Shown: positions 45,032-51,591 of the stretch, in pieces
Layout of the letters: every line of letters begins with the position of its first letter
How positions within the stretch are numbered: the first letter of the stretch is position 1
Source: Kiritimatiellia bacterium
Lineage (GTDB): Bacteria; Verrucomicrobiota; Kiritimatiellia; RFP12; UBA1067
Reading direction: 5' to 3'
DNA: 64,000 nucleotides
Assembly: GCA_017395505.1 (NCBI GenBank)
Contig: JAFPUH010000024.1
Span: 26,561 to 90,560, forward strand
The notes under the pieces: model-generated
Told to the model about the DNA's origin: nothing
The model's input: only the letters and a program-made list of their open reading frames with translations
The model's database searches: none
Program-made: the position numbers and the translations under genes

Positions 45032-47027
45032 GATCCAACTCTTTCAACCATTCCCTAAGATAACGCGCAACATTTTTATCGGCAATCAAGTCCACCAATT
45101 GCCGATCCGCAACTGTGATTGATTCCCTCTTGTCGCTTTTCCCCCGATTACGCACGAGTGAAAATACTTTTTCAACCAAATCATCGATTTTCTTCTGTGC
45201 AAATGATCCTACCGTTCCATCCTTTAAAACAAATCCATGGCGATATAAGTCAAAAATATTTGCACCAAAAGTTTTTTTCCGCTCCGCACCAATCAAATCA
45301 CTTAAGAGAACAATATTACCCATGGGGACATCAGACAAAATCATAGGTGAATGGGTGGCAAAAATCACATGAACTGATTCCGCAAGCCCTACAGTATCAA
45401 AGAACTTGATTATATTTACCACGATATCCCTTTGTCTTTCGGGATGCAAAGTTGTTTCTGCTTCGTCTAGGAATACGACCATCTCAGGCGAAAATGATCG
45501 CCGAAGCAATCGTACCGGCATATCAATCCTATTATTTTCTTGTGCATAATACTGACGTAATGATCGAGATTCTTTCATTACCATAAGATAATCATAAAGC
45601 CGTGCGAACATTGATAAGAATGACATGTCTCCTGATGACATTACTGGCTGATACGCGAAAGAAAGAAAGTCAAAACGATTCATCGCGACCACATATGAAT
45701 CAAAGAAATTAGAGAACTTGTCCGCATCTTTGAACTTAACGTGGAGTTCATCAATCGAACTTTGATGCTCTTCCGCTGCCGCACATTTGCACCATTTAGC
45801 AAGACGCACGAACACTCGAGTTAATGAACGACGCTCTTCAAGTTCATTAGGATAATATTCTTCTGCGACATCGCCAGGGCGTTGACCCCTAAGTCGTACA
45901 CCTCTACGCAACGCACTTACTAATTTGTAATGGGCCTTAAAGACATGGTTATCATTCTCGTTACAAACGAACTGCAATACTACATTCAATAGCACTGTTA
46001 CTAAATATTCTGCATAGTCAACAGTCAGTATATTATATCTGTCACTAAATAAGCCAGATATGCGAATATACGTGTACACTAGGGCAATAAACGCTCTCAG
46101 AACAAAGCTTCTTTTTGCATGAACACTATCCGCATAATACGCCCCAGAGCGCTCCAACACTTCAACAACACGGATTCTGCCCTGTAACCAAGCTACTATA
46201 GCACTTTTCCCGTCTTTAGCCTTCTCTTCCTCTAACGCTTGTGCCAAGCGTTTCTTTTGCGCTGAAAGCCACCTCTTATTTTCTTGGTATTCTACAGAAT
46301 GAATTGATATGACAATTTCTTTGGGTCGCGGAAGATTAATACCATCATCACCATGAGGTATATTCCTCAATGCCGTCAACCCCATCCTATGTTCCACCGC
46401 AAGATAATTCTTTTGAATACTTTGATGATCATTCAAATCATACGGACGGTTCATTTGCTCTTCAAACCCACCATACATAATACCGTTTGTTGAAAGGTTC
46501 TCCATCGCTGGAGAATTCACCAGGAATTGGTTCTCCGTTGTAAAATGTGGGGAATAATATGCAAATTCAAAATTCCAAAGCGCGTCGTTTTTGTCACAGG
46601 CCCCGCCTTTGCATTGATTGATAGTTGTTATGTGAGTAGGCTTTTCGGGCAACTCCAATGTTGATACTCCACCTGCTAATTGGTTGTTGCTATCATACCA
46701 TTGGACAAACCATTCACTTCCTTTTTCATAAACTATCAGATAGTCAAAACTTGCAGATCCATCTTCTGCAGAACGAACCAACTCTAAATAACGTGCAACA
46801 GAGGTCTTGCCCGATGCATTCTTTCCGACTACTGCACTTACATCTATATCACATGCTCCGTTAGACCCTTTGAAAAATCCTATTGGCAAAACACAACCAG
46901 TTTCTTTGCAGATTAATCTTATAACCGCATCTTTCTTCTCTACAGAAAATGAATACCCTGAATGGAAATTCAATGAAAAATCATCAAATGGAGGATGATC
47001 ATTAATCCACATATACAAAAGTTTCAT
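45009..47027 (-). CDS. Large ABC/SMC-like ATPase (PtuA-like) with a long helical insertion
   Basis: It has Walker A GKNASGKTSV (about residue 70), Walker B VVFLDEAETTLHP (about residue 545) and H-loop FATHSP. Confidence 0.75.
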   Translation of the reverse strand: MKLLYMWINDHPPFDDFSLNFHSGYSFSVEKKDAVIRLICKETGCVLPIGFFKGSNGACDIDVSAVVGKNASGKTSVARYLELVRSAEDGSASFDYLIVYEKGSEWFVQWYDSNNQLAGGVSTLELPEKPTHITTINQCKGGACDKNDALWNFEFAYYSPHFTTENQFLVNSPAMENLSTNGIMYGGFEEQMNRPYDLNDHQSIQKNYLAVEHRMGLTALRNIPHGDDGINLPRPKEIVISIHSVEYQENKRWLSAQKKRLAQALEEEKAKDGKSAIVAWLQGRIRVVEVLERSGAYYADSVHAKRSFVLRAFIALVYTYIRISGLFSDRYNILTVDYAEYLVTVLLNVVLQFVCNENDNHVFKAHYKLVSALRRGVRLRGQRPGDVAEEYYPNELEERRSLTRVFVRLAKWCKCAAAEEHQSSIDELHVKFKDADKFSNFFDSYVVAMNRFDFLSFAYQPVMSSGDMSFLSMFARLYDYLMVMKESRSLRQYYAQENNRIDMPVRLLRRSFSPEMVVFLDEAETTLHPERQRDIVVNIIKFFDTVGLAESVHVIFATHSPMILSDVPMGNIVLLSDLIGAERKKTFGANIFDLYRHGFVLKDGTVGSFAQKKIDDLVEKVFSLVRNRGKSDKRESITVADRQLVDLIADKNVARYLREWLKELDRGKDLIR

Positions 47028-47104: not shown

Positions 47105-47248
47105 TCACAATTTTCTCATCTTACCTATCTCGCGGTCGACGAGCCACCGATACCAGAGACCTTGCCAGAAATGCCAGCGGAAACCGGCGATGCCATCGAG
47201 GAAGCCGAGCTTGAGGAAGTAACGGATGAAGAAGTAGCAAAGGTATGG
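47105..47248 (-). pseudogene. Remnant A of a GT2 C-terminal coding segment (about 47 codons plus stop)
   Basis: The minus-strand frame reads PYLCYFFIRYFLKLGFLDGIAGFRWHFWQGLWYRWLVDREIGKMRKL*. This is the GFLDG C-terminal signature of one GT2 subfamily, but no N-terminal part is present. Confidence 0.7.
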
Positions 47249-47271
47249 AACACTTATTGCAATAAGTGTTC
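47248..47271. repeat. 24-bp perfect palindrome, copy 1
   Basis: The sequence gaacacttattgcaataagtgttc lies 5 nt downstream of the wHTH gene stop. Confidence 0.95.
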
Positions 47272-47276
47272 TAATG

Positions 47277-47834
47277 TCAGTTGTTCGCTATGATGAGTCT
47301 AGAGATCTGGTCTTCTGGCAAACAGATTCTGAAGGATTCACCATCAATATTTTGAACAAGGCCGATGTCGATTGCTGGCTTCAAATGCCGCAGCATGGTC
47401 TTGACATTCAACCCCGTTCTGTCGCAGAGGTAGTCCTTGACAACAGGCCCGTTTTCATAGATTATCCGAACGAGCTTTGCCCGCATTACGTTGCCCATAA
47501 CAGCGAGAATCGCACAAAATCGCTCATCACGGGAATCGGATTCCCGCTCAGAACAGAACCGCTCCTCGATTGCGACGGCAATCTTTCGAATCGCGACCGG
47601 CGCATTCTCGGCATCGGCTGTGTAATTAACGAAGCGTCCGGATCTCATTCGGCGAATCAAGCCAAGCCGCCAAAGCTGTCCCAAATATTGACTCGTTGCA
47701 GCCTGCTTGAGCCCGTCGGCAGAATCAACCGCAATCCCGACATTAAGACCATCTCGAGCCTCGCAAACACGGCGGAGCAAGCCCCTTCGCTCGGGATTCG
47801 CCAACTTCCTGCACAACTCCCAGGTCTCAACCAT
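47277..47834 (-). CDS. Tandem winged-helix (ArsR/SmtB-like HTH x2) transcriptional regulator
   Basis: It has two ArsR-like segments: LANPERRGLLRRV...AATSQYLGQLWRLGLIRRMRSGRFVNY and MRAKLVRIIYENGPVVKDYLCDRTGLNVKTMLRHLKPAIDIGLV. GGGAGG lies 11 nt upstream of the ATG. Confidence 0.7.
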   Translation of the reverse strand: MVETWELCRKLANPERRGLLRRVCEARDGLNVGIAVDSADGLKQAATSQYLGQLWRLGLIRRMRSGRFVNYTADAENAPVAIRKIAVAIEERFCSERESDSRDERFCAILAVMGNVMRAKLVRIIYENGPVVKDYLCDRTGLNVKTMLRHLKPAIDIGLVQNIDGESFRICLPEDQISRLIIANN

Positions 47835-47854
47835 GGACGCAGAAACCTCCCTTG

Positions 47855-47878
47855 GAACACTTATTGCAATAAGTGTTC
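47855..47878. repeat. 24-bp perfect palindrome, copy 2
   Basis: It is identical to copy 1, and 27 nt including the flanks are identical. It lies between the candidate promoter and the RBS of the wHTH gene. Confidence 0.95.
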
Positions 47879-47939
47879 TCGTTAATTGAATCGACTGCTG
47901 ATGGATGGATGAGCTGCATGGATGATTAATTTCGCTTGT

Positions 47940-47948
47940 ATTGTATCA
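47940..47948 (-). promoter_or_regulatory. Extended -10 (TGATACAAT) for the wHTH regulator gene
   Basis: The minus strand reads gtaTGATACAATacaagcg. It lies between palindrome copies 3 and 2. Confidence 0.4.
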
Positions 47949-47977
47949 TACTATCCGCCATTATTAAAGGAGGTATG

Positions 47978-48001
47978 GAACATTTATTGCAATAAGTGCG
48001 C
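47978..48001. repeat. 24-bp palindrome, copy 3 (imperfect)
   Basis: The sequence is gaacatttattgcaataagtgcgc, with the same upstream flank, GGTATG, as copy 1. Confidence 0.9.
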
Positions 48002-48057
48002 TAGACATTTTGGAGATTGGAGATTTCACGGCTTGGATAGTTAGGAGTGGACAAAGG

Positions 48058-48104
48058 AGCGGAAACCAGCGATGGTTAAGGAAGCCGAGTTTAAGGAAAT
48101 ATTG
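48058..48104 (-). pseudogene. Remnant B of the same GT2 C-terminal segment (short)
   Basis: The minus strand reads QYFLKLGFLNHRWFP. Nucleotide similarity to remnants A and C covers the YFLKLGFL(D) region. It abuts the stop of the 298-aa gene. Confidence 0.55.
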
Positions 48105-48105
48105 T

Positions 48106-49002
48106 CTAATTACCCCTACCTTTATTCATCTCTTCTTGATTCACCTTATACTCTTCAAGCGCACCATCGCATTCTAATGCCAATATTGACGCAATACATA
48201 ATTGATATAAGTTGTCATACCAGTGTTCAAGCTGTCCTTCGGTCAGCGATCCAGCAAATGGTTTATACTTAGGGGACTCGGGCGCCATGTTGTTGTGCCG
48301 AACATCCAACTGATTCGCAATATTAAATAATGCACTAGCAATTCTAGGTGATAAACTTGTGAGAACGTCTCGTTTAGCTTCCAAGTGGTGGCAAACACTA
48401 TTCAGCACTGCCCTTTTCCCATCAATATTCCCCTTTAATGACCGATGTCCATATCTCATTATATCAGTGCATAATGCTTTATCAACAGATTTCGCTGCCT
48501 CTATAGCTCCTATATCGTTGGGCACCGCTTGACAAACACAATCTTGCTCTATCATTGTATAGCCACAACCAGAAAGCGAATCATATACTTGTTGTATACT
48601 AGGCGACACCAACAATGATATATCCGATGCCGGGAGGACATTTGTTGATCTCAGACCTTTAAGCATTGTGGCAATATATTCGCAAAGCAACAAATATGTA
48701 TCAAAGTCTGGAATTGGCAACTTCCACGAGGACAATGAAGCGAATGTAATATTACATGCACTATCGTAGTCAAACAGATTTCGGTACGTCTTCCTAATAG
48801 AAGTCGGGAAAATAGCAAAGTTATCCTGACATAAATACGCAAGCGAATGGTCCTGCCTAATTCTAGAGCTTGTGCACATATAAATGGCACGGGGAAACTG
48901 ATCCTCTATCGCCCCGTAAAATTCTTTCCATAATATTGCGAATTCCCTTTTTACGTCAAAACCAAGTTCTTGTAATATGTCTTTAAAAGACTTTCGTGAC
49001 AT
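48106..49002 (-). CDS. 298-aa hypothetical protein, no recognisable domain (orphan cassette gene)
   Basis: It is a clean ORF with GGAGG 8 nt upstream of the ATG. It is A+T-rich and lacks a signal peptide or TM segments. The C-terminal half looks helical. Confidence 0.65.
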   Translation of the reverse strand: MSRKSFKDILQELGFDVKREFAILWKEFYGAIEDQFPRAIYMCTSSRIRQDHSLAYLCQDNFAIFPTSIRKTYRNLFDYDSACNITFASLSSWKLPIPDFDTYLLLCEYIATMLKGLRSTNVLPASDISLLVSPSIQQVYDSLSGCGYTMIEQDCVCQAVPNDIGAIEAAKSVDKALCTDIMRYGHRSLKGNIDGKRAVLNSVCHHLEAKRDVLTSLSPRIASALFNIANQLDVRHNNMAPESPKYKPFAGSLTEGQLEHWYDNLYQLCIASILALECDGALEEYKVNQEEMNKGRGN

Positions 49003-49056
49003 GACACAACCTCCTCATTACATTTTCACGACCGACTCTACGCAGGCGAAGGTTTG

Positions 49057-49080
49057 GATCACTTATTGCAATAAGTGTGC
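49057..49080. repeat. 24-bp palindrome, copy 4 (imperfect)
   Basis: The sequence gatcacttattgcaataagtgtgc lies about 55 nt upstream of the start of the 298-aa gene. Confidence 0.9.
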
Positions 49081-49143
49081 TAAGAGAGACAAGGGGAGCT
49101 ATACCAATATATATCACGTGTGTGACTAAGTGCGCGAAAAGTC

Positions 49144-49320
49144 TCAACTGGACTTTCCCCTTTTCAACCTACCTATCTCACGATCCACGAGCAATCGATA
49201 CCACAAGCCTTGCCAGAAATGCCAACGCCAACCGGCGACACCATCAAGAAAACCAAGTTTAAGAAAATAGCGGATGCAGAAGTAGGCGAAGGCGCGGAAG
49301 TAGGGTGCGAGCGCATACAG
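49144..49320 (-). pseudogene. Remnant C of the GT2 C-terminal segment (58 codons plus stop)
   Basis: The minus strand reads LYALAPYFRAFAYFCIRYFLKLGFLDGVAGWRWHFWQGLWYRLLVDREIGRLKRGKSS*. It begins right after the stop of the GT4 gene and aligns with remnant A at the DNA level. Confidence 0.7.
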
Positions 49321-49324
49321 AATC

Positions 49325-50461
49325 TCATGCTACCGATAGTCTTCTTGCACTCGTTGGCAAAGGTTTCGATGTCAACAGACATTCATAAATCTTGCTAAGG
49401 TCGGCCGCTATACTATCCCAAGAATACTTTTCAACAACAAGCGCGCGCCCTCTTTCACCCATTTCATCCCTTTGTTCGTCAGTCATTGATGTTGCGCATT
49501 TTAGTGCCTCTGCGATAGAATCAACACTTATCTCCGTCCACCATCCGCAGTTTTTCTCCAAAAGATCACCCCATGGCGCCCCTTTTGTGGTTATGACCGG
49601 GATTCCCGCATACAAAGCCTCTGCCACCACAATACCAAAATTCTCTGTATGTGTAGGCAAAATAAATAGATCGCTCCTTCTATAAGCCTCCCACTTTTTA
49701 TCGTCCGACAATGGCCCTGTAAATATAAAGTCCCCTTGAAGCCCATATTCACAAACCGCGCTTTCAACAACCTTTTGGTAATCATCTGCATCGGTTCCAA
49801 CGATTTCCATCTTCCAGCCAAGAGGTCTCACCTTTGCCCATGCCTTAACCAGATTCAACAACCCCTTTTTCTTATGAATACGGCTTACAAACACCGCCCT
49901 TCTGCACCCGTCGCCATGACGATTCCACTCAGGAAGTTTCTCAGGGAAAATCACCCCGTTAGTGTTGTAATATACTGGAGTATCGCCGCAAAACTTCCTT
50001 ATCTGACGAATCTCATTATCCGCAGTAGAATGTATTGCTAATGCATGACGCATATCATACCCCTGATACGTCCAGAGAGCCGGATACTTCTTCCACCATT
50101 TCTGCTTAAGGCTCCACTCGTCAAGTGTTCCATGTGGTGTAAGGATATATGGAACATTATTTCTTCGCGCCGCAACAGCACAAGCATGTAGCCTTGGCAT
50201 CCAAAAGTCATTTAACTGTATAATGTCTGGGCGCAACTCATGGATCAAACCTTCTACAAGACGGATAGTTTCAATATAACTTGGTGAGCCAAGATTTAGA
50301 TAGTTTCTCACTCCTTGAACCCAGGGAGGGGGGCACTCGTCCAAAGCAACAAGCCAAGCGTCTACGCCACACTTGTCCAACCCCGCGACAAGGCCTTGCA
50401 CAGTCCTTGCAGGACCTCCGTACTCTTCCGACAAGGTCTTTACTATCTGAACTACTTTCAT
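49325..50461 (-). CDS. Glycosyltransferase family 4
   Basis: It starts MKVVQIVKTLSEEYGGPART and contains ...TENFGIVVAEALYAGIPVITT. An ATGA overlap joins it to the upstream gene. The last ~15 codons look like read-through into junction DNA. Confidence 0.85.
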   Translation of the reverse strand: MKVVQIVKTLSEEYGGPARTVQGLVAGLDKCGVDAWLVALDECPPPWVQGVRNYLNLGSPSYIETIRLVEGLIHELRPDIIQLNDFWMPRLHACAVAARRNNVPYILTPHGTLDEWSLKQKWWKKYPALWTYQGYDMRHALAIHSTADNEIRQIRKFCGDTPVYYNTNGVIFPEKLPEWNRHGDGCRRAVFVSRIHKKKGLLNLVKAWAKVRPLGWKMEIVGTDADDYQKVVESAVCEYGLQGDFIFTGPLSDDKKWEAYRRSDLFILPTHTENFGIVVAEALYAGIPVITTKGAPWGDLLEKNCGWWTEISVDSIAEALKCATSMTDEQRDEMGERGRALVVEKYSWDSIAADLSKIYECLLTSKPLPTSARRLSVA

Positions 50462-51591
50462 CGCTTGACACTCCGCTTCTCCCCAATGCATAGAGGCAAA
50501 TATTTCTTAAACACAAAATGCACACAAAGGCTAACAATTACAGCTATGCCAGAAACGAGCAACGCATAAGCCCCAAAGGCAACAAGCCCCTTTTGCGGAA
50601 TAGAGGTCGCGCCTGGCATCTTAAGCAACAAACCCATTATCAAATACTTATGCACCATCATTATAGTTATTGATGCCCCGCCAACCGTCACCAGAGCTCG
50701 AAGCTTGACGAATTGTGAAAGCCATGCGCTCGCATATATCCCCAATACAGCAAAACATACAAATGCCCCGTACCACAATAATGATATTTTTCTCACCCAT
50801 GAATCAGGGGCAAGCAAGGCGCAGCACATAACACATACAATCAACAGCAATGAGACTGCCGAATACTTGAACTCATTTTTATCAATGCAATACTTACCAA
50901 TAAGAAAAAAGCAGAATGCTTCAGGCACACGAATCAAACCCCACGGTAATATCCAATTTTCAAAGCGAATACAAACGCAAGAAAGCACCACCATCAAACA
51001 GACATTCGCGATTCGCAAAGGTCTCGTACTCAGTAATCGATCCGATCCATACGCAAACAGCTCAACAACAAATAGGCATGGCAAGAACCATAAGACGCTA
51101 TTCATCTTTAGCCCAACCCCCAAGGGCCACCCACTGGCATAAAGAATAGCGACCATCTGTTTCCACAATGGCAAGACCGCACTGGAAGCATCACTGTAGT
51201 ATGTATCCGTTGCAATTGATACTGCCGACGAGAAGCCCCCCGAAATTAACGTATAGATGACAGCCGAAAGTACCGCAAAAAAGAAATACGGGACTAGCAG
51301 CCTATTGACCTTTTTGACTAAATAAGCCTTAACGCCTATATCACTGCCACGCCAAACAACACCAGCCAATGCAAAAAACGCAGGCATATGGAAAAGGTAT
51401 ATAGTGTTTCTTAAAAGAGAAAAGAAATCATTTGCGTTGGTATCCCCCATGTGTGAGGCCATGCCAAACGCATGGCCAAGCACTACGAGAAGCGTGAGAA
51501 GCCCTCGCCACCTATCAACCCATTCTATACGTTGTCTGTATTGGTGCATAAATATCATATCTTGGATTATATGAACCTCGGACATTTGCAA
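50458..51591 (-). CDS. Acyltransferase family 3 (O-acetyltransferase-type membrane protein)
   Basis: It contains RIEWVDRWRGLLTLLVVLGHAF and about 10 TM helices. The start is uncertain (ATG 51591, 51558 or 51549), and all options overlap the wzy end. Confidence 0.8.
   Translation of the reverse strand: MQMSEVHIIQDMIFMHQYRQRIEWVDRWRGLLTLLVVLGHAFGMASHMGDTNANDFFSLLRNTIYLFHMPAFFALAGVVWRGSDIGVKAYLVKKVNRLLVPYFFFAVLSAVIYTLISGGFSSAVSIATDTYYSDASSAVLPLWKQMVAILYASGWPLGVGLKMNSVLWFLPCLFVVELFAYGSDRLLSTRPLRIANVCLMVVLSCVCIRFENWILPWGLIRVPEAFCFFLIGKYCIDKNEFKYSAVSLLLIVCVMCCALLAPDSWVRKISLLWYGAFVCFAVLGIYASAWLSQFVKLRALVTVGGASITIMMVHKYLIMGLLLKMPGATSIPQKGLVAFGAYALLVSGIAVIVSLCVHFVFKKYLPLCIGEKRSVKR

Follow-up and report, generated by a model that had tools for sequence, protein, structure and literature searches.

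Copies of one glycosyltransferase gene end between the cassettes of a polysaccharide locus in a Kiritimatiellia bacterium

Introduction

How can the last codons of one gene come to stand several times along a locus, each time without the rest of the gene? This question is raised by a 64-kb stretch of DNA from a Kiritimatiellia bacterium (contig JAFPUH010000024.1), called here the window, by which the whole stretch is meant. On its minus strand, three segments, fragments A, B and C, encode versions of the same peptide, the C-terminus of a family 2 glycosyltransferase (GT2). The first-pass annotation of this DNA had described them as three decayed copies of one coding segment and had attributed them to incoming elements that integrate repeatedly at one site and regenerate their target. 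The window was compared with about 150 loci of relatives, whose contigs are labelled L003 to L151. From this comparison, we lean towards reading the segments as scars that modular recombination has left at one GT2 gene end and that may still work as homology linkers.

Three remnants of a GT2 gene

Read along the minus strand, the locus comprises a GT4 glycosyltransferase gene, fragment A, 66 nt, a palindrome (pal1), an orphan open reading frame (ORF), fragment B, pal2, a promoter-like site, pal3, a gene for a winged helix-turn-helix (wHTH) protein, pal4, fragment C, the gene pairs PDC-M62 A+B and AbiLi+AbiLii, a different GT2 gene (GT2_296) and a GT25 gene. Fragment A (49144..49320, minus strand) corresponds to GT2 codons ~213/215-267 followed by the stop codon (49146-49144), and its translation ends in ...EILYALAPYFRAFAYFCIRYFLKLGFLDGVAGWRWHFWQGLWYRLLVDREIGRLKRGKSS. 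It matches residues 215-267 of the GT2 of L029 with 70% identity (tblastn) and the 3' end of the GT2 gene of L035 with 80.5% nucleotide identity. Fragment C (47105..47248, minus strand) holds codons ~224-267 and the stop codon (47107-47105), ends in ...VPYLCYFFIRYFLKLGFLDGIAGFRWHFWQGLWYRWLVDREIGKMRKL, shares 82.6% nucleotide identity with the same L035 gene end and is joined to the flank of pal4 at CCTTYGC. Fragment B (47999..48104, minus strand) is a decayed GT2 3' end that goes from about codon 226 to the last codons; it has suffered several deletions, is frameshifted and runs straight into pal2. The short peptide QYFLKLGFL was its first recognizable part, and a gapped alignment extends it to about 47999-48104.

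Fragments A and C align without gaps over 125 nt at 79% identity; in a blastn self-comparison of 12 kb, the match is 139 nt long (77.7%, E=1e-25). For fragment B, Smith-Waterman scores of 53-54 were obtained against both the L035 GT2 and fragment C, with a null of 17 +/- 3 (maximum 29) that none of 500 shuffles brought to this level, and blastn aligns B with C over 46 nt (E=1.6e-4). The three same-peptide segments of the first-pass annotation are thus confirmed on the minus strand at the positions given above, as are the likeness of A and C at the DNA level, now joined by the gapped alignment of B, and a similarity above shuffled background. It had also rightly noted that every fragment adjoins the stop codon of the gene upstream of it (GT4 at 49325 for A, the orphan ORF at 48106 for B, the wHTH gene at 47277 plus palindrome for C). 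As for the decay of all three copies, it holds for B alone, since A and C contain no frameshift and no internal stop.

No in-frame ATG, GTG or TTG start is present in A, B or C. A fourth fragment was looked for in other intergenic gaps from 41.7 to 49.1 kb, including the gap between PDC-M62 and AbiL, and none was found there; the full GT2 used as a tblastn query against the window returned the fragments and no intact copy. As the segments cover only codons ~213-267 and lack the catalytic N-terminal domain, they are remnants and not genes. The single-stranded DNA fold of A and C is no better than that of shuffled sequences (z +0.38 and +0.70).

The parent gene and its arrays in relatives

A search of a large protein collection with fragment A yielded only short ORFs of 41-107 aa, grouped in 44 database clusters, which share the C-terminal peptide and have unrelated N-termini. 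The DNA surrounding such ORFs reveals the parent, a GT2 of 267 aa in L029 and of 273 aa in L034 that ends with the same peptide. In a scan of one genome per species, about 60 intact genes (260-290 aa) with this C-terminus were found in several phyla, and the fragments were restricted to a subset of Kiritimatiellia and of Lentisphaerae-type metagenome-assembled genomes (MAGs). Fragments A, B and C are therefore 3' ends of a ~267-aa GT2, and the GFLDG...WY motif had been correctly recognized as the C-terminus of a GT2 subfamily. The intact gene, which the first-pass annotation proposed to seek in relatives, exists in L035, L029, L034 and L134. In L035, it lies at the syntenic place (9374-10180; PF00535 match), upstream of GT2_296, and its 3' end is 80-83% identical to A and C; this contig comes from the MAG CAMZEN (also L003 and L015), which bears palindromes of the window type. 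The last ~150 bp are the most conserved stretch of the GT2 gene in this clade. The resident GT2 at 40830-41720 was rejected as parent, its C-terminus being unrelated. A supposed lineage of fragments without parent, marked by a KWHF variant, was also discarded, as intact KWHF/KWNF genes occur in L042 and L061.

The intact gene heads arrays in L029, L034 and L134, which support the proposal that such segments mark a site where foreign cassettes pile up: in L029, L034 and L134-L136, the GT2 is followed by cargo and then by further copies of its end (numbered f1, f2 and so on within an array). In L029, the intact GT2 is followed by a gene for a Y1-wHTH protein (see below) and two other genes, a 153-nt copy of the gene end (96.7% identity), NYN and 23S_rRNA_IVP-family genes, a partial piece (codons 196-221) and a GT4 gene. 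In L134-L136, which belong to one organism, the order is intact GT2, DUF6602, wHTH module, f1, a GT87-like gene, f2, AbiEi, a copy of the palindrome, f3 and a nucleotidyltransferase cassette. The array of L030 consists of AAA_14/DUF4143, f1, a nucleotidyltransferase gene with a gene for a 154-aa protein, f2 and then the core genome. In L131-L133, one fragment separates a DUF4062-ATPase from a Schlafen-like ATPase, and L034 has the intact GT2, a short fragment, DUF6602, an AAA_21 pair and a further fragment. The fragments are oriented in the direction of the locus in all cases. Two kinds of cargo stand directly behind a GT2 end in at least two genomes, namely DUF6602 (L134, L034) and nucleotidyltransferase (L030, L136), and the Y1-wHTH module does so in L035, L029 and L147. 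Apart from Y1-wHTH, no integrase or transposase is listed among the genes called in the flanks (up to 10 kb) of L029, L030, L034, L128, L131 and L134. Viral contigs of IMG/VR gave no fragment match, and plasmids gave only distant intact GT2 genes.

Two other features of the fragments in relatives can be mentioned. In L029, arrays of the heptamer (GAGATRA)n begin inside the last codons of a GT2 fragment (…GATAAAGAGATAAGAG…) and recur at many intergenic sites (8551-8680, 9580-9684, 10048-10107, 12324-12406 and others). In some fragments, a hairpin-like insert of 45-66 nt is found just past GFLDGxx (…CCACCACTCTAGCGACTTGCTTCGCAAGCGACCTTCGGTCGGTGGATAC…; proteins P0031, P0035 and P0039). Both fragments of L030 carry it (10126-10165 and 11500-11545), though they differ like separate alleles. 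This insert could be a small site-specific insertion element or the sign of a spreading fragment lineage.

Variation between strains

The GT2_296 protein of the window is encoded without any difference by ten contigs. Within the strain group of the window, gene order is the same in all contigs long enough to span the cassettes, and that of L143 matches the window over 20.9 kb with 100% identity. Two contigs with the identical GT2_296 protein, L147 and L148, share with the window a flank of 98.3% nucleotide identity that begins at the GT2_296 start codon (window positions 41722-38232 for L147). Upstream of this point, PDC-M62 and AbiL are replaced in L147 by a Wzx gene, a GT2 fragment that starts at about codon 229 and overlaps the Wzx stop codon, and a Y1-wHTH gene between its own palindromes; the short contig L148 shows one palindrome of the latter module before GT2_296. 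The order in L035 is GT2, Y1-wHTH module, Wzx and GT2_296. Cassette content thus varies at this locus, as serial insertion of cassettes would have it.

Divergence of the copies

Over 108 aligned nucleotides, A and C differ at 23 positions, 18 of which are third codon positions; counted by codon, 17 changes are synonymous and 4 are non-synonymous. The same skew appears when they are compared with fragments and intact genes of other genomes, and A and C are each as near to the GT2 ends of other genomes as to one another. This reads as the signature of divergence under selection at the protein level, so that each copy would have been part of a working gene until recently or would have been converted from one. 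Because the differences fall mostly at third codon positions, A and C appear to have been imported from different functional alleles rather than to have arisen by duplication in place and decay. The mostly synonymous differences thus favour the claim that incoming DNA brought its own copies of the GT2 end. In the genome of L134, 8 of the 11 differences between f1 and f2 are also at third positions.

The palindrome and the wHTH module

An 18-nt palindrome, CACTTATTGCAATAAGTG (PAL-W), occurs four times in the window, at 47251, 47858, 47981 (one mismatch) and 49060. The four copies lie within 1.8 kb, for a chance expectation of 0.02, and related MAGs hold 2-4 exact copies each. Pal1 (49046..49083), made of the PAL-W core (49060-49077) and the conserved flank ATCCAAACCTTCGCC, is located 55 nt upstream of the orphan gene. 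The other copies belong to the wHTH module (47246..48003, minus strand), which is composed of pal2 (47981-47998), pal3 (47858-47875), the gene (47277-47834) and pal4 (47251-47268), with a promoter-like site, TTAATA-16-TGATACAAT, detected by a promoter scan at 47967-47940. The gene encodes an ArsR-like protein of 185 aa with tandem wHTH domains (Pfam HTH_24, NCBIfam ArsR/SmtB).

Between the window (48003-47246) and L134 (3724-4481), homology starts and stops exactly with pal2 and pal4 (760 nt, 82.8%); the two wHTH proteins share 86% identity and PAL-W is the same in both. Around the genes of more distant homologues (54-57% identity) in L030 (57%), L137, L138 and L139, the elements are arranged in the same way, and the palindromes are related to PAL-W without being the same, GGAACACATATTATAATATATGTTCC in L030, ACCACATATTATAATATGTTGT in L137 and L138 and GYACAAATATTATAATATTTGTTC in L139. 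In all six genomes, one copy of the palindrome is found just before the ATG and another just past the stop codon. In the window, L134, L030, L137 and L138, the ATG-proximal copy is preceded by a promoter-like site that has an extended -10 (TGnTAyAAT), and in the window, L134 and L030 this promoter has a further copy upstream of it. Since the palindrome co-varies with the wHTH protein across the six genomes, this inverted repeat beside the gene of an ArsR-like regulator looks like its cognate operator, the binding being predicted from sequence.

The first-pass annotation had proposed that the palindrome and the CCAWACCTTYGC junction act as an att-like site. This proposal is contradicted by the distribution of the 35-45-nt unit, which belongs to the wHTH module in six genomes and is found at other loci without any GT2 fragment. 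The extended unit including TTCCA-NNN-CTTYGC is also present at loci devoid of GT2, for example close to aspS, behind a RelB-YoeB pair or in front of a Fic-wHTH gene. PAL-W thus appears not to be an att or recombination site. Other origins considered for it were rejected as well. The derivation of TCCAWACCT from the GT2 codons P-P-Y-L does not hold, as the same flank follows PAL-W without GT2 in L012, L025, L115, L116 and L003; PAL-W as the start of a small ORF (MKxWNTYCNKCA) is followed by unrelated ORFs of 38-111 aa; and a larger mobile element shared with the window is not seen, a 467-nt repeat of CAMZEN having in common with it only the palindrome and ~8 nt. A scan of metagenomes for extended PAL-W found two short contigs only. 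When the wHTH domains of three proteins (Fic-wHTH, Y1-wHTH and the wHTH protein of the window) were compared, none was specifically similar to another.

The 467-nt repeat is present in two copies on one contig, 97% identical (L003 2963-3427 and L015 4413-4877); PAL-W is close to one of its ends, and the repeat further contains GC-rich hairpins and iterons of 21 nt (CCTTYGTATCATCCAGT...), three or four in number. Tandem doublets of the 18-nt core, ~22 nt apart (TCACTTATTGCAATAAGTGAATTCACATATTGCAATAAGTGA), occur in L010, L020, L021, L022 and L026, from Verrucomicrobia ADurb.Bin018 and Kiritimatiellae MAGs, and resemble a two-site operator. In L138, the stretch of ~330 nt that precedes the wHTH gene (~634-963) contains five tandem units of ~30 nt with a -35-like TTGAC(A/G) (CCTCCTTGACATCTCCTGCGAGTCATGT).

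Junctions and the breakpoint cluster

The junctions between cassettes and fragments can be compared where PAL-W precedes the fragment. The junction of L134 f1 reads PAL-W-TTCCAAAC, a 29-nt hairpin insert and CTTTGCT, then CCCGCCCTACTTCCGCGCCTTCGCCTACTTC on the fragment side. In L136 f3, PAL-W-TTCC is followed by GCGCCTTCGCC, and in window fragment C, PAL-W-TTCCATACCTTTGC is followed by TACTTC. Relative to the L134 junction, the window joint of pal4 and C is a 26-nt deletion between the repeats CCTTTGC and CCTTCGC. In the same way, 18 nt have been lost in L128 between two CTACTTC repeats. The junctions thus carry microhomology and show stepwise trimming, from L134 f1 to L136 f3 and window C. 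The joint of pal4 and C, taken at first for a crossover site, is accounted for by this deletion.

Around codons 215-218 (TACCGCCTCCCGCCC), an interval of 9-12 nt contains at least five fragment starts that appear to be independent: TACCGCC in L029 f2, CGCCTCC in L039, CTCCCGCC in L134 f1, and CCCGCC in L030 f2 and L128. Two further starts are near codon 213, and the partial piece of L029 (f3) ends at codon 221. With uniform breakpoints, ~0.3 of the ~17 junctions (an approximate count) would be expected in this interval. The five junctions do not share a single nucleotide as an identical crossover core, and the others are scattered from codon 160 to 246 (codons 160, 165, 188, 199, 204, 221-232 and 246).

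Y1-wHTH genes and a second palindrome family

The Y1-wHTH proteins (~360 aa) combine an IS200-like Y1 (HUH) domain with a C-terminal wHTH domain. Their genes are found in L035 (10305-11396), L029 (6215-7300) and L147 (1752-2870), and also in L117-L125. In L035 and L029, they directly follow the intact GT2, and the two proteins are 33% identical over their full length. Their best NCBIfam match is the REP-associated tyrosine transposase, or RAYT (REP_Tyr_transpos), with a score (59 bits) that does not reach the cut-off of 80. Cognate palindromes, mostly with the core AGGTCNGACCT, flank all nine homologues from Kiritimatiellia MAGs (L117-L125) as well as those of L029 and L147, in the order palindrome, promoter, palindrome, gene, palindrome, which is the layout of the wHTH module. 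The idea of an element specific for this GT2 was discarded, as among the nine homologues on genome contigs only the L035 copy adjoins it, the L029 case coming from metagenome contigs. The L118 homologue has a GT2 of another family ~520 nt upstream. Hairpins of the RAYT family are present 7-21 nt upstream of four fragment starts (L039, L128, L030 f2 and L134 f1).

By tblastn, the window contains no Y1 homologue. It holds a single copy of the RAYT-associated palindrome at 36229..36264 (ACTGGGAAAACAGGTCTGACCTGTTTTCCCACTG), a perfect hairpin of 36 nt (DNA fold -13.6 kcal/mol, z -6.3). This copy is read in frame as 12 codons (...TTGKTGLTCFPT...) of a GT4 gene (35802-36728), in the linker between the two domains, and looks like a REP-like insertion tolerated within a coding region.

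Setting of the locus and its cargo

The G+C content of the window is ~62% up to ~41 kb, then 40-47% to its end. The sharp fall from ~60% to ~45% at ~41-42 kb, close to the start of GT2_296, is the border between conserved glycosyltransferase genes in common with L035 and a variable region. The low-GC part is a polysaccharide locus with all genes on the minus strand, encoding GT4 and GT2 glycosyltransferases, Wzy, acyltransferases and a UDP-GlcNAc 2-epimerase. Among public sequences, its nearest relatives are rumen and gut MAGs of Kiritimatiellia, Verrucomicrobiota and Lentisphaerae; the core genes at 26-35 kb have 86% nucleotide identity to the ENA contig L030.

Upstream of fragment A, the last gene of the polysaccharide block encodes a GT4 (49325..50491, minus strand; Pfam Glycos_transf_1 and Glyco_transf_4), whose stop codon at 49325 overlaps the start of A; it is a 388-aa ORF in the window, and the gene called in L032 and L143 starts later and encodes 378 aa. 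The orphan ORF (48106..49002, minus strand, 298 aa), the first cargo, has no match in Pfam, PADLOC or NCBIfam and is found in other contigs of the strain group covering that stretch. Behind fragment C lies a candidate defence pair (43940..47027, minus strand) made of an ATPase of 672 aa (45009-47027) and an HNH-like protein of 363 aa (43940-45031). PADLOC assigns them to PDC-M62A (6.8e-55) and PDC-M62B (3.9e-46), with weaker matches to the Septu models PtuA and PtuB, so that the adjacent genes form a candidate PDC-M62 (Septu-like) system; in the homologous pair of L030, the ATPase is 66% and the partner 31% identical. It is followed by a predicted AbiL defence pair (41765..43732, minus strand), in which the AbiLi ATPase (42413-43732) and AbiLii/RloB (41765-42409) are adjacent (PADLOC 2.8e-84 and 3.1e-30; Pfam AAA_21 and RloB) and which has its own -10 element TGGTATAAT upstream. 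The next gene, GT2_296 (40830..41720, minus strand, 296 aa), is the first in the high-GC flank, which is conserved: from its start codon on, the window is syntenic with L035 and L147, and blastn aligns window positions 41729-39029 with L035 at 78-79% nucleotide identity.

Elsewhere in the window, another GT4 is split into two ORFs, one of 172 aa with the N-terminal domain (54580-55098) and one of 178 aa with the C-terminal domain (54039-54575). The same split (54039-55098) is called in other samples (L149 and L151); it is probably a frameshifted pseudogene or a split gene. An ORF of 1773 aa (2411-7732, minus strand) and one of 327 aa (1199-2182, plus strand) have no Pfam match at E<=1e-5. Pfam revealed no integrase or transposase among the larger window ORFs tested, and scans of the window for tRNA genes and with Rfam gave no match.

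Origin of the arrays

Modular recombination at the GT2 end could account for these observations as follows. Incoming DNA from other strains or species would carry its own GT2 end beside the cargo, and recombination through the shared ~150-bp end would either insert a circularised piece in the Campbell manner or replace the upstream block through one crossover in the gene end. Repeated events would stack units of cargo plus GT2 end. The GT2 body would then be lost or replaced, which in the window would have left GT4 abutting fragment A, and microhomology deletions would trim the junctions. The pathway would be of the RecA type rather than that of a dedicated recombinase. The cargo found directly behind a GT2 end comprises defence systems, toxin-antitoxin-like pairs, the wHTH module and the RAYT-like Y1-wHTH module. 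Among the cargo of relatives are AbiE, DUF6602, RAYT-like genes and nucleotidyltransferase pairs; that of the window consists of the orphan gene, the wHTH module, PDC-M62 and AbiL.

Several observations weigh against this reading. At 79% identity, A and C are a poor RecA substrate for recombination between the present copies. No excised circle and no polymorphism of a single cassette was observed, and the strain-group contigs that span the cassettes share one gene order. The third-position skew within one genome needs a very recent origin of the fragments from intact alleles, or gene conversion. The intact GT2 of two distant genomes is immediately followed by a Y1 (HUH) gene, which is a hint that an enzyme drives the process. 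Plain homologous or illegitimate recombination does not predict the cluster of at least five starts at codons 215-218, so that a site-specific mechanism keeps a share of the probability; the cluster could be due to common descent of the fragments from one lineage that spreads, to the fragility of a CCGCC-repeat sequence or to an enzyme specific for the site.

Such a mechanism, in which elements resembling cis-mobilizable elements (CIMEs) or bounded by hairpins would integrate with a core in GT2 codons ~215-221 and supply a replacement 3' end, inserted by a tyrosine recombinase acting in trans or by a RAYT-like Y1-wHTH protein, is nevertheless rather unlikely. Besides the clustered starts (L029 f2, L039, L134 f1, L030 f2 and L128), it would explain why L029 f3 is the complementary piece (codons 196-221), ending at the same place. 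It would likewise suit the succession of full gene end, module and fragment from codon 215/218 around the L029 Y1 gene and the window wHTH module (B-C), the position of Y1-wHTH genes with a mutual identity of only 33% behind the GT2 of L035 and L029, and the RAYT-family hairpins near four fragment starts; tandem accretion at gene 3' ends is moreover an established process (PMC5704250). However, no integrase is seen among the window ORFs tested by Pfam, in agreement with the first-pass annotation, or among the genes called around the fragments of relatives, the junctions are not nucleotide-exact and many lie elsewhere (codons 160-246), and only one in nine of the Y1-wHTH homologues on genome contigs adjoins this GT2. 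The fragments lack a special single-stranded fold (z +0.4 and +0.7), phage contigs carry none of them, plasmids have only distant intact GT2 genes, and the window joint of pal4 and C is a microhomology deletion. Furthermore, no duplication of a 150-nt target is known for enzymes of the IS200/IS605 type. The target-regenerating integrase of the first-pass annotation is thus not demonstrated, as neither a recombinase in cis, nor an exact nucleotide common to the junctions, nor an attC-like fold, nor a phage copy was found. A more daring version, that the last ~50 GT2 codons are at once landing pad and inter-cassette recombination site (attI/attC-like) of an integron-like Kiritimatiellia system without its own integrase, in which an enzyme acting in trans, possibly Y1-wHTH near the hairpins, may insert and swap promoter-bearing defence and toxin-antitoxin cassettes at codons 215-221, appears improbable.

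Two explanations would dispense with incoming gene ends. The fragments might be kept for a function, as small ORFs for membrane peptides or as a cis element (promoter, ribosome binding site or translational coupling), which would fit the 44 database clusters called as ORFs of 41-107 aa, the synonymous bias seen even between fragments and an ORF of 58 aa in L128-L130 that has an ATG start and overlaps the next gene (ATGA) in three samples. However, the window fragments have no in-frame ATG, GTG or TTG, B is frameshifted, the called ORFs owe their unrelated N-termini to read-through from the DNA beside them, some lineages contain a 45-nt insert with a stop, and the promoters found lie downstream of the fragments and not inside them; a function of this kind is very unlikely. 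Duplication of the resident GT2 3' end in place, by slippage or unequal crossing-over, followed by neutral decay, deserves almost no credence. Direct repeats in one orientation within 2.2 kb, the decay of B and the 96.7% identity of the L029 copies are what it would produce, but 78% of the A/C differences are at third positions, unlike what neutral decay would leave, A and C are as close to the GT2 ends of other genomes as to each other, and the cargo between the copies differs in G+C and has homologues in other contexts.

Comparison with known systems

The arrays recall the tandem accretion of CIMEs and integrative elements at the 3' end of a target gene, exemplified by the ICESt1-related islands at fda in Streptococcus thermophilus (PMC5704250). 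Like these, they consist of unrelated cargo split by direct repeats that hold the end of one target gene, as seen for A, B and C and in L029, L030 and L134-136. The intact gene stands at one end of the array in relatives (L029, L034, L134 and L035), not in the window, and elements of the array have no integrase of their own. Unlike accretion arrays, they have no integrase-bearing member among the ~150 loci, the units measure only 0.8-4 kb, the repeat boundaries are not nucleotide-exact and the copies look like different alleles; in place of a site-specific recombinase in or next to the array, only the Y1_Tnp-wHTH protein is seen (L029, L035 and L147).

The locus also shares features with the shuffling of O-antigen and capsule modules, for which junctions in a conserved gene are documented by the wzx junction and the tyv remnant of Yersinia pseudotuberculosis (PMC5399914). 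It is a low-GC variable polysaccharide locus with a conserved junction gene, remnants and no mobile-element genes; what sets it apart is that the same 150-bp gene end occurs several times per locus and separates cargo unrelated to polysaccharides (defence, regulators). Similarly, alternative defence cargo between the same flanks in close strains, often without mobility genes, is typical of the defence hot spots between core genes of E. coli and Pseudomonas (PMC10121019, PMC10250203), whereas the present site is inside a polysaccharide locus, along which copies of a single gene end recur.

Compact cassettes of one or two genes, a recurring spacer of ~150 nt and a cargo rich in defence and toxin-antitoxin-like genes are reminiscent of integron arrays. 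However, there is no IntI and no attC fold or R'/R'' boxes, the cassettes have their own promoters and the spacer is a piece of coding sequence. No Phage_integrase-type match was found in the window or in the annotated flanks of relatives, and PAL-W has GTTCCAW and not the GTTRRRY of attC. The locus is not an integron. Finally, the relatives resemble REP/REPIN-RAYT systems (PMC3116915, PMC3337134) in that a single Y1 (HUH) gene lies between cognate palindromes of 25-45 nt (9/9), with copies elsewhere, including the window. They differ from them by the C-terminal wHTH domain of the Y1 protein, by its score of 59 versus 80 bits and by the single AGGTCNGACCT-type copy in the 64-kb window, where PAL-W belongs to a wHTH-only module without HUH domain.

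Significance

No parts of bacterial genomes change faster than polysaccharide loci and defence islands, and both determine by which phages a cell can be infected. Here, in an uncultured lineage of gut and rumen, they are interleaved, and a 150-bp gene end serves as the spacer of cassettes in many metagenomic contigs and several MAGs. This suggests that defence islands could be built without a dedicated integrase, the most conserved piece of a common gene being used as a portable homology arm. The peptide ...RYFLKLGFLDG..WHFWQGLWYR..VD.EI provides a handle to search for cassette arrays and candidate defence genes in Kiritimatiellia. The same loci yield a wHTH regulator family with a predicted operator and a RAYT-like Y1-wHTH family with cognate palindromes. 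Should an enzyme prove to have made the cluster of breakpoints at codons 215-218, the arrays would represent a new kind of cassette system.

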